From a candidate division TM6 bacterium UASB124 (GTDB lineage: Bacteria > Babelota > Babeliae > Babelales > RVW-14), in assembly GCA_945897315.1 (NCBI GenBank), contig CAMDFF010000002.1, positions 91,618-155,617 on the forward strand: a DNA stretch of 64,000 nucleotides, in the 5' to 3' direction. Within the stretch, counting starts at the first letter, position 1, and each line of letters starts with the position of its first letter. The notes below the pieces were generated by a model. It saw only the letters and a list, made by a program, of their open reading frames with translations. It was not told where the DNA came from and did no database searches. Positions 61,710 to 63,266 of this stretch are shown one piece after another. Made by a program: the position numbers and the translations under genes.

Positions 61710-62306
61710 ATGGCAGTGTTTTGTGTTAGGCGACGTTTATTGTTGTTGTGCGTTATAATGGCTTTACAAAGTCTTCAGGCGGCAGATCAAGAAAAAAAGC
61801 CTCATCATATGCCATCGATTATGAGATTGCCTGAGGAAAATCATAGCAAAGCTGTAGCAGCCATACGTGAAGGCAATGTTCGTTGGTTGCAATCTATTTT
61901 AATGGATAGCACTACTGGGTGGACGTTGCTGCATGAAGCGTGTGCTCAAGAAAAGCCAAGTCTTGAGGTGGTGAAGATGTTAATCGAGCAGGGTGCTAAT
62001 GTTAACGCTATCAATTATAATGGCTCTACTCCTTTGCTTGAGTTGTTTCGCTGGCCAACCATTAATCTTGATATTGTGAGCTTGCTCCTAAGTTATGGTG
62101 CTTCTCCTAATGTGCGAGATTGTCGAGGGTGTCAGCCTTTGCGCTCTGCATGTTTAGTAGGTGATTTTGATACTGTTGTTGTACTGTGTAGCAATAATGC
62201 GATTATTACAGGAACAATACTGGAGCTTGAAATGGATGAAAGAATAAAAAAATATTTGATACAAAAGCAAAAAACACCATCTAGCCGATGCTGTATAGTT
62301 ATGTGA
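61710..62306 (+). CDS. Secreted ankyrin-repeat protein ending in the CaaX box CIVM
   Basis: Signal peptide MAVFCVRRRLLLLCVIMALQSLQA. ANK repeats (WTLLHEACAQEKPSLEVVKMLIEQGANVN, STPLLELF...IVSLLLSYGASPN). The last codons tgc tgt ata gtt atg tga read C-C-I-V-M-stop. Confidence 0.8.
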   Translation: MAVFCVRRRLLLLCVIMALQSLQAADQEKKPHHMPSIMRLPEENHSKAVAAIREGNVRWLQSILMDSTTGWTLLHEACAQEKPSLEVVKMLIEQGANVNAINYNGSTPLLELFRWPTINLDIVSLLLSYGASPNVRDCRGCQPLRSACLVGDFDTVVVLCSNNAIITGTILELEMDERIKKYLIQKQKTPSSRCCIVM

Positions 62307-62330
62307 CGAATTTTGTTGGGATTTACGCTT

Positions 62331-63266
62331 ATGATTTTTCTGACACGTGTGATATTCTTTTTCATTTTTATTTCAGTTGCCTCTCTTGCGCAAATACAAT
62401 CATCGGCTGCCCCTGAGGAGGCTAGATTGCCTCGTTGCGGTAGTCTGACAGTACCAGTTAGTGCGTGTAGTTTGTCCGAGGCGATTGAGAAAAATAACAT
62501 TGATGCAGTACAGTTGTTCCTAATATCTGGCCATCAGGCTTATGAAGCTGATGGTATGCCCCCAGAGCTTCCTTTGGTAACTGCTTGTTTGTATGGCTAT
62601 ATGGATATTATTGCGTTATTGTTGGCTCGCGGCGCACAGATTAATGCTCGTAGCAGCACTACTGATAAAACAGCACTGTTTGCGACATGCTATCATTTTC
62701 CAATTAACGGTTACTTAGTTAACTATTTGCTTGATCAGGGTGCTGATCCTAATATTACGTCGTTTGGTAATTGGACACCTTTGTATGTGGTTTGTAAGCA
62801 TACCACTGATATAGAGCTGGTTAAACTCTTACTTAAACATAAAGCTATTGTGAATAGCAAATCAGATTGTGGACGTACGCCGTTGCTTGCGGCATGTCTT
62901 TATGGGAGCTCTCATCAAGCGCCATCAAGCTTAGAGCTAGTAAAATTATTACTAGATGCGCATGCAGATGCGAATATCGTGGCTGATGATGGTTGGACGC
63001 CTTTAATTGCTGCATGCTTAGCGAGTCCAATTAATATAGATTTGGTTCAGCTTCTGCTTATATATAAAGCAAATGCTAACCCTTACCCTATGTATAGTGG
63101 AACAACACCGATTATGAGCGCATGCCGACAAGGTAGGCGTGATGTTGTTGAGCTTCTTATGCGGTATGGAGCACAGGTCGATTCTATCGTGTATGCACAT
63201 GCTCAAACGCCAGAAATTCAGGGGATTCTTCAGCCTGAGGTTACGCGGCGCTGTGTAATCATGTAA
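62331..63266 (+). CDS. Secreted ankyrin-repeat protein ending in the CaaX box CVIM
   Basis: ATG 62331 gives the signal peptide MIFLTRVIFFFIFISVASLA. About 6-7 ANK repeats (e.g. WTPLYVVCKHTTDIELVKLLLKHKAIVN, RTPLLAACLYG..LELVKLLLDAHADAN, WTPLIAACLAS..IDLVQLLLIYKANAN). The last codons cgg cgc tgt gta atc atg taa read R-R-C-V-I-M-stop. Confidence 0.8.
   Translation: MIFLTRVIFFFIFISVASLAQIQSSAAPEEARLPRCGSLTVPVSACSLSEAIEKNNIDAVQLFLISGHQAYEADGMPPELPLVTACLYGYMDIIALLLARGAQINARSSTTDKTALFATCYHFPINGYLVNYLLDQGADPNITSFGNWTPLYVVCKHTTDIELVKLLLKHKAIVNSKSDCGRTPLLAACLYGSSHQAPSSLELVKLLLDAHADANIVADDGWTPLIAACLASPINIDLVQLLLIYKANANPYPMYSGTTPIMSACRQGRRDVVELLMRYGAQVDSIVYAHAQTPEIQGILQPEVTRRCVIM

Follow-up and report, generated by a model that had tools for sequence, protein, structure and literature searches.

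Two adjacent genes in the genome of a Dependentiae (TM6) bacterium encode ankyrin-repeat (ANK) proteins with a predicted export signal at the amino terminus and a canonical CaaX box, the farnesylation signal of eukaryotic proteins, at the carboxyl terminus. The two open reading frames (ORFs), here ORF A and ORF B, lie near the end of a window of 64,000 nucleotides (assembly GCA_945897315.1, contig CAMDFF010000002.1, positions 91,618 to 155,617). We think it probable, if well short of certain, that both products are effectors: exported through the general secretory (Sec) pathway and a type II secretion system (T2SS), or through vesicles, and then farnesylated by the protist host of the bacterium. 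The support for this reading is one motif retained in a pair of paralogues, together with its context, and not conservation among orthologues or robust genome-wide enrichment.

The feature itself is real. ORF A ends in the codons cga tgc tgt ata gtt atg tga, giving R-C-C-I-V-M-stop (...SSRCCIVM), and ORF B in cgg cgc tgt gta atc atg taa, giving R-R-C-V-I-M-stop (...TRRCVIM). Both ends have Cys at position −4 (codons 62292-62294 and 63252-63254, respectively), aliphatic residues at a1 and a2, and Met at X, the class recognized by farnesyltransferase (FTase). An earlier sequence-only reading had reported two canonical CaaX ends of exactly this composition, and the codons bear it out; it had further stated that Cys at −4 is found at no other C-terminus of the window, which proves true across all 52 non-overlapping ORFs with a length of 80 residues or more. 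It had also pointed to Ras-like features upstream of the boxes. Here the extra Cys of ORF A stands: Cys194 (codon 62289-62291) lies beside the CaaX Cys and is accompanied by a Lys/Arg-rich stretch (KKYLIQKQK..R). The basic residues noted before the ORF B box come down to Arg-Arg, with no polybasic tract.

ORF A comprises a predicted signal peptide and about three ankyrin repeats, followed by a capping helix and a flexible tail, KQKTPSSRCCIVM; ORF B comprises a predicted signal peptide, about seven ankyrin repeats, and a flexible tail, ...QPEVTRRCVIM. The longest form of ORF B begins with a TTG codon (62313; 317 residues; stop codon 63264-63266), and its amino terminus is hydrophobic with this start and with the ATG at 62331 alike.

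CVIM, the box of ORF B, is prenylated and cleaved in yeast reporters, has a support vector machine score of 1.0000, and is positive in PrePS, according to the sequence data of a yeast FTase study (PMC9231725). CIVM, the box of ORF A, is not itself among the sequences listed there. The prenylation-positive set does list CIVA/C/F/G/I/L/Q/S/T/V along with ten CxVM sequences, and CIVK is the sole negative (PMC9231725). CIVM is very probably an FTase substrate, because its listed single-substitution neighbours are all positive except CIVK.

Throughout the analysis, the canonical FTase pattern was C[AVILMFTSC][VILMF][MSQAC], whose internal rate in the window is 7.4e-4 per position. Two of the 52 window ORFs end in it, against 0.04 expected (P for two or more, about 7e-4). 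ORF A and ORF B are paralogues, however, with 32% identity and a BLASTP alignment that runs to the last residue with Cys−4 in register, so the two ends represent one ancestral event retained rather than two independent events. The sequence-only reading had held that two boxes argue against chance; this survives as an argument from retention through divergence, and falls as one from independent occurrence.

Shared ancestry also makes room for a plainer explanation, that the ends are fortuitous and unused: the ancestor of a fast-evolving ANK pair ended by chance in C-aliphatic-aliphatic-M, and both copies keep it. We consider this unlikely, though it deserves to be taken seriously. Single origin favours it, as does the permissiveness of prenylation: 20-33% of all 8000 Cxxx sequences, up to a third, are predicted to be prenylatable in the same yeast data (PMC9231725), so the informative rarity lies mostly in Cys at −4, plus the canonical class. 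CaaX-like ends also arise by chance in housekeeping proteins, for example a D-Ala-D-Ala ligase (Ddl) that ends in ...CELC (locus L043). What chance explains less readily is the pattern of divergence between the two genes. Their last 25 or so residues are poorly conserved, apart from the Cys, the two aliphatic residues (I and V swapped), the Met, and the position of the stop codon. The substitutions within the box are conservative I/V swaps with different codons (ata gtt in ORF A, gta atc in ORF B), which rules out recent gene conversion between the genes. Moreover, related ANK ends, namely those of a split RING-ANK gene (locus L001) and of locus L010, terminate some 10 residues sooner, without the tail. 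The retained motif is of the optimal FTase class, not any Cxxx, and the genes lie within an island of predicted host-directed effectors. As judged from the alignment, the motif has been kept through a long divergence of ORF A and ORF B.

Comparisons beyond the pair weigh against the view that the boxes are used. No orthologue of ORF A or ORF B was found in 5.8 billion proteins, and the best non-self matches (32% identity or less) lack canonical CaaX ends. Such an end is absent from the best 120 of 345 ORF B homologues and from all eight non-self homologues of ORF A. Exhaustive phmmer searching with ORF A, against 1.84 billion representatives, likewise returned no orthologue, its list being saturated by giant multi-ANK proteins; a metagenome scan by way of Ddl gave a best match of 66% identity and no orthologous island. 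With no orthologues found, conservation rests on one paralogue pair of shared ancestry. The sole other contig with the locus, a 12.3-kb Logan contig, is identical over 11,240 nt, so it offers no population variation to compare. The syntenic island in locus L010 (9937-14714), from the closest relative for which flanking sequence is available, has seven signal-peptide genes downstream of ddl, none with a CaaX box.

These searches bear also on a third explanation, that the CaaX tails are leftovers of recent horizontal transfer from a eukaryote or giant virus with a prenylated ANK protein. ANK repeats are typically eukaryotic or viral, and among the distant matches, at 26-29% identity, there are indeed eukaryotic proteins and an ANK protein of a Megavirus. 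Nevertheless, the GC content of ORF A and ORF B, both overall and at third codon positions (GC3), is typical of the window, which marks them as resident genes, and recent transfer was rejected on this composition. Both proteins carry predicted bacterial signal peptides; each is most closely related to the other and to neighbouring ANK genes; and the homologues just described do not supply a CaaX-ended source. A foreign origin for the tails is thus very improbable.

To ask whether CaaX ends are enriched, as the sequence-only reading had proposed for ANK and signal-peptide proteins, C-termini were surveyed first in the window and 80 GTDB loci (1326 ORFs). The canonical pattern occurs at six ends, against 0.98 expected (P=5e-4), with shifted controls at 0-3. 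Since the pattern had been chosen after these ends were known, a second, independent set was assembled from 80 metagenome loci (675 new unique ORFs). Here the preset pattern occurs once, against 0.58 expected, and the enrichment was not reproduced. The pooled 2001 ORFs have eight such ends, where 2.6 are expected (P=0.005); if the window pair is left out, P becomes 0.048, and some shifted controls reach equal counts. (Synteny among the loci, and the repeated orthologues that they contain, inflate the shifted controls.) Phylum-wide enrichment therefore appears weak, as the explanation from chance would have it, with shifted controls similar. Moreover, only two of 60 Dependentiae ANK ORFs have CaaX ends, ORF A and ORF B themselves; the 58 others do not. 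By contrast, all eight canonical ends are on signal-peptide-like proteins (Fisher P=0.001). Among six CaaX-ended proteins scanned, none matches a housekeeping family: two are WD40 or beta-propeller proteins, and four have no Pfam match.

A raw count of Cys at −4 was rejected as the statistic, as about a third of such ends belong to MnmE (TrmE), which in Dependentiae ends in a conserved ...FCVGK (for example, L027 13660-15123 and L028 13628-15001). This is a known motif of catalytic type and has nothing to do with prenylation.

The other CaaX-ended proteins (Table 1) appear to be unrelated. All-against-all BLAST within the fetched loci found no orthologues among them, and homology between the two beta-propeller proteins, of L023 and L128, could not be demonstrated. 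The L128 end, CIIS, is identical to the box of yeast Ras2. The end of the L002 orphan is Ras-like, combining a basic stretch and two upstream cysteines with CSVQ (...RRAKPRSACPCGDSCSVQ); this protein has no homologue in 5.8 billion proteins. In the independent set, locus L110 (9231-12625) has three tandem signal-peptide ANK genes on the plus strand followed by a convergent signal-peptide orphan of 194 residues, which ends in CVIL, a box of the geranylgeranyltransferase type.

Table 1. Coordinates of the features discussed; positions are those of the window unless a locus is named
Feature	Position	Strand	Details
ORF A	61710..62306	+	198 aa; ORF calling and translation
ORF A, predicted Sec signal peptide	61710..61781	+	MAVFCVRRRLLLLCVIMALQSLQA|AD; n/h/c heuristic and AlphaFold2 N-terminal helix; putative cleavage site
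ORF A, upstream Cys194, CaaX box C195-I-V-M and stop	62289..62306	+	tgc tgt ata gtt atg tga
ORF B	62331..63266	+	311 aa; ATG start; public gene call P0001
ORF B, predicted Sec signal peptide	62331..62393	+	MIFLTRVIFFFIFISVASLAQ|IQ; n/h/c heuristic and AlphaFold2 N-terminal helix; putative cleavage site
ORF B, CaaX box C-V-I-M and stop, after Arg-Arg	63252..63266	+	tgt gta atc atg taa
Ddl-Ddl tandem fusion	58590-61100	+	836 aa; two complete D-Ala-D-Ala ligase units
Degenerate ANK-like gene	61240..61686	+	148 aa; predicted signal peptide; no CaaX
RING-H2 gene	63417..63992	+	Predicted signal peptide; no CaaX; Pfam zf-RING_2 E=5e-9
Intact RING-ANK gene	38529-40058	-	509 aa; signal-peptide-like N-terminus; RING at residues 203-253; C-terminal ankyrin repeats
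Three tandem TLC ATP/ADP translocase paralogues	33960-38093	-	434, 434 and 449 aa
L002, orphan	12493-13038	+	181 aa; predicted signal peptide; ends ...PRSACPCGDSCSVQ; directly downstream of ddl
L023, WD40 protein	17323-18708	-	Signal peptide; ends ...GSGGCTIQ
L036, CaaX end	14869-15276	-	Ends ...DSCTIS
L051, CaaX end	20630-21214	-	Ends ...GLGCVLQ
L128, signal-peptide protein	3547-4860	-	Ends ...KRKELAQHSFCIIS; beta-propeller matches weak, far below Pfam thresholds

Ankyrin membership was judged by PF00023 and PF12796 (tandem 33-residue helix-turn-helix repeats above the Pfam gathering threshold). Both proteins score above that threshold, as the sequence-only reading had supposed: ORF A with 55.6 bits for Ank and 56.5 for Ank_2 (E about 4e-15), and ORF B with 108 bits for Ank and 128 for Ank_2 (E=2e-37). 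The AlphaFold2 model of ORF A (mean predicted local distance difference test score, pLDDT, 79) has an amino-terminal helix (residues 2-28), a disordered segment (27-39), an ANK solenoid (42-165), a capping helix (177-188), and a tail with pLDDT of about 57 (189-198). That of ORF B (mean pLDDT 84) has a helix (2-24), a disordered linker, a solenoid (48-280), and a low-confidence tail (281-311), with pLDDT below 50 at 307-311. Low pLDDT after the solenoid, a model-based proxy, suggests that both CaaX boxes are on flexible ends. The top Foldseek matches are generic ANK and DARPin structures, and fold and sequence searches of the PDB likewise gave only generic ANK/DARPin matches and no further domain. 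No F-box was matched in either protein by Pfam at E of 0.01 or below.

Signal peptides were called by a hand-made heuristic that looks for a positive n-region, a hydrophobic h-region of 7-15 residues, and small residues at −3 and −1. ORF A reads as RRR, LLLLCVIMAL, and SLQA|A in the n-, h-, and c-regions, and ORF B as TR, VIFFFIFISV, and SLAQ or ASLA. By this measure both have a Sec signal peptide of the signal peptidase I type; neither amino terminus contains a lipobox. The detector is crude, flagging 36-43% of all Dependentiae ORFs and 31/40 ANK ORFs; its rates agree with those published for Chromulinavorax, in which 44% of proteins overall and 78% of ANK proteins have signal peptides (PMC6561590).

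The earlier description of the two proteins as secreted is upheld as far as predicted signal sequences go, namely by the heuristic and by the AlphaFold2 amino-terminal helix with its disordered linker. A Sec signal peptide, though, delivers a protein to the periplasm only. ORF A and ORF B might on this account be residents of the periplasm or envelope, their carboxyl-terminal cysteines serving in disulfides, in metal binding, or for no purpose. The predicted signal sequences are of the classical Sec type, the phylum has no known dedicated injection system (PMC4776705, PMC4378268), and signal-peptide ANK proteins do reside in the periplasm elsewhere: Rickettsia parkeri RARP-1, Pseudomonas aeruginosa AnkB, and a Bdellovibrio ANK protein (PMC9553169). 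Residence nonetheless seems improbable. Signal-peptide RING-H2 neighbours would make no sense in the periplasm: a RING E3 ligase needs host E2 and ubiquitin, so the signal-peptide proteins of the island would be expected to act in the host cytosol. A host destination also fits better with the CaaX ends of the survey, every one of them on a signal-peptide-like protein and two on eukaryote-type beta-propellers. To our knowledge, no bacterial process uses a carboxyl-terminal Caa-Met box. Finally, those who have described the phylum hold that its signal-peptide ANK proteins are secreted into the host (PMC6561590, PMC4378268), in the amoebal case into the cytoplasm (PMC4378268, PMC4776705).

Farnesylation in the host thus remains the preferred reading, and suggests the following course of events. 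ORF A and ORF B would be made with a Sec signal peptide, recognizable in the sequence and presumably cleaved, and would cross the inner membrane via SecA and SecYEG. Judging from the literature, they could then leave the cell by the T2SS, the only secretion system found in Babela and one conserved in TM6 genomes (PMC4378268, PMC4776705); in the present genome, the genes for secretion systems lie outside the window. Alternatively, they could leave in outer-membrane vesicles; Chromulinavorax, which lies in the host cytoplasm, sheds such vesicles (PMC6561590). Entry into the host cytosol, which the scheme would require, is its weakest link. Once there, host FTase would add a C15 farnesyl group to Cys−4, a competence indicated by reporter data for CVIM and considered likely for CIVM. 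Host Rce1 would then cut off -IVM or -VIM, and ICMT would methylate the new carboxyl terminus at the endoplasmic reticulum, as in the established pathway. The lipid tail would anchor the ankyrin solenoid to the cytosolic face of host membranes, leaving the solenoid to bind a host target. Cys194 of ORF A is a possible palmitoylation site, as in proteins of the RhoB or H-Ras type. Speculatively, the two proteins may even go to different membranes, because ORF A has Cys194 and a Lys/Arg stretch whereas ORF B has only Arg-Arg. Presumably, the pair goes back to a tandem duplication in a local family of signal-peptide ANK proteins and kept the CaaX box while the rest diverged to the present 32% identity.

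The gene neighbourhood supplies the context for this proposal. The genome to which the window belongs is that of a member of the Dependentiae/TM6 (Babeliales): among GTDB species genomes, the best 80 matches to its Ddl-Ddl protein all fall in metagenome-assembled genomes, the majority with TM6, Dependentiae, or Babeliales in their titles and the others labelled generically or otherwise, and the top identities are 72% (L002) and 74% (L010). Cultured Dependentiae are obligate intracellular parasites of protists, namely amoebae and flagellates, and the TLC ATP/ADP translocase family, which has three members in the window, is a hallmark of energy parasitism. SecA, ribonucleotide reductase, and Mur ligase are also encoded. 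The Ddl-Ddl fusion, found in 160/160 Dependentiae loci fetched, carries a low-complexity acidic and Pro-rich tail.

On the plus strand, ddl is followed after 139 nt by a gene for a 148-residue protein, after a further 23 nt by ORF A, and after another 24 nt by ORF B; a gap of 150 nt then precedes the RING-H2 gene, also on the plus strand. The 148-residue protein is a distant paralogue of ORF A (BLASTP E=2e-6 over one ANK repeat), with no Pfam match. Together these genes form a small island whose products are predicted to be exported and have domains of eukaryotic type (RING, ANK).

The RING-H2 gene is, to judge from its sequence, a split RING-ANK gene. Its ORF stops at 63990-63992, just after an ANK repeat begins, and the repeat goes on in another frame past the end of the window. 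In L001, where the RING-ANK locus spans 10657-11585, the continuation is an ANK ORF of 118 residues at 11229-11585 (..TPLLIACSKNRADIVALLL...). One A added to the A7 run at 63972-63978 would fuse the two ORFs into a single RING-ANK protein comparable to the intact paralogue at 38529-40058. A homopolymer error could explain the split, as could a true pseudogene or slippage; the two assemblies, the window and the Logan contig, are identical at this run. The intact RING-ANK gene elsewhere in the window ends in ...RKDCYH, without a CaaX box, and its product is a candidate secreted E3-ligase mimic.

In L010, the syntenic island lies between ddl and a convergent minus-strand ORF of 671 residues, which by eye looks like the PriA helicase. 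Its contents include one signal-peptide RING gene (147 residues) and three signal-peptide ANK genes. The island next to ddl thus turns over fast between genomes whose Ddl proteins are 74% identical. A scan of 60900-64000 for promoters and terminators gave counts not above those of shuffled controls.

Other window genes are of separate interest. A papain-like cysteine peptidase domain (DUF1796) occurs in a signal-peptide protein encoded at 3571-4362 (minus strand), and PQ-loop repeats, of a mainly eukaryotic transporter family, occur in a 209-residue protein encoded at 28946-29575 (plus strand). Three consecutive plus-strand ORFs (12233-16275; 461-475 residues), amid sugar-nucleotide and glycosyltransferase genes, have no Pfam match at E of 1e-5 or below; they may encode membrane proteins of a polysaccharide locus.

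The sequence-only reading had named as precedents AnkB and other CaaX-motif Dot/Icm substrates of Legionella, and SifA of Salmonella. AnkB of Legionella pneumophila, an intracellular bacterium adapted to amoebae, is an F-box/ANK effector with the CaaX box CVLC at residue 169; through the host enzymes FTase, Rce1, and ICMT it becomes anchored to host membranes on their cytosolic side (PMC2916131). ORF A and ORF B resemble it as small bacterial ankyrin proteins that end in CaaX and come from a protist-dwelling bacterium. The differences are several: AnkB has an F-box, for which ORF A and ORF B have no Pfam match, and recruits the SCF ubiquitin ligase; AnkB is injected through Dot/Icm, a type IV secretion system (T4SS), and lacks a Sec signal peptide, whereas ORF A and ORF B have predicted ones and belong to a phylum in which only the T2SS is reported; and the proteins, from different phyla, have no specific sequence relation beyond the ANK repeats. 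ORF A and ORF B are therefore not members of the AnkB family, and the precedent would hold as a functional analogy only.

SifA has a CAAX motif that is processed by the host prenylation machinery. Its carboxyl terminus is CLCCFL, prenylated on the CaaX-type Cys and S-acylated on a nearby Cys; these two modified residues offer a possible analogy for the Cys-Cys of ORF A. Unlike ORF A and ORF B, SifA is a type III secretion system substrate of unrelated fold, is geranylgeranylated (X = L), and has no ANK repeats.

Eukaryotic proteins provide a further comparison. The tetrapeptide of K-Ras4B is CVIM, the same as that of ORF B, and Ras hypervariable regions pair a basic stretch with CaaX, as does ORF A. 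The GTPase and lamin domains of K-Ras4B, N-Ras, and the lamins are not present in ORF A and ORF B, which are bacterial proteins with a predicted signal peptide.

A parallel to the survey as a whole is offered by the Pel proteins of Legionella (PelA-K), diverse effectors that share only a carboxyl-terminal CaaX box, needed for localization to host membranes or the vacuole (PMC13081727). Similarly, unrelated signal-peptide proteins of Dependentiae end in CSVQ, CTIQ, CTIS, CVLQ, CIIS, and CVIL. The Pel proteins, however, are T4SS substrates whose prenylation was shown experimentally, whereas the Dependentiae case is known from sequence alone and the phylum-wide statistics are weak. Within the phylum, the ANK proteins of Babela and Chromulinavorax likewise combine a signal peptide with ANK repeats, in tandem families with RING or F-box neighbours; ORF A and ORF B differ from most proteins of this type, 58/60 of the sampled Dependentiae ANK ORFs lacking CaaX.

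Host-mediated lipidation, then, is already known from Legionella; the novelty here lies in the phylum and in the export architecture. Price et al. suggested that CaaX effectors occur widely among pathogens equipped with injection systems (PMC2916131). No paper was found that connects CaaX, prenylation, or farnesylation with Dependentiae, TM6, or Babela, the three genome papers on the phylum included. The finding would not astonish an effector biologist. Should the proteins prove not to be farnesylated, they would serve as a warning that bacterial paralogues can go on carrying perfect short motifs of eukaryotes that have no function.

Dependentiae are widespread and almost uncultured parasites of protists, with about 10% of their genes encoding ankyrin proteins. 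As a marker of destination, a CaaX box is highly specific, since it can function nowhere but on the cytosolic side of eukaryotic cells, and its retention on signal-peptide proteins would accordingly indicate action in the host cytosol. The chances seem to us evenly balanced that mimicry of host prenylation signals reaches a phylum outside the proteobacteria and includes proteins that leave by Sec and the T2SS, or in vesicles, and not through an injection system, and that the retained boxes are the first sequence-level sign that the Dependentiae secretome acts in the host cytosol. Other secreted proteins of the phylum may use the same anchor: the CTIQ and CIIS propellers, and the CSVQ, CVLQ, CTIS, and CVIL orphans. 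If ORF A and ORF B are farnesylated, then Sec-exported Dependentiae proteins do reach the host cytosol; the host-lipidation paradigm of Legionella and Salmonella would extend to a distant phylum with a different export route; and the boxes would provide a cheap and direct experimental handle on where the Dependentiae secretome acts.

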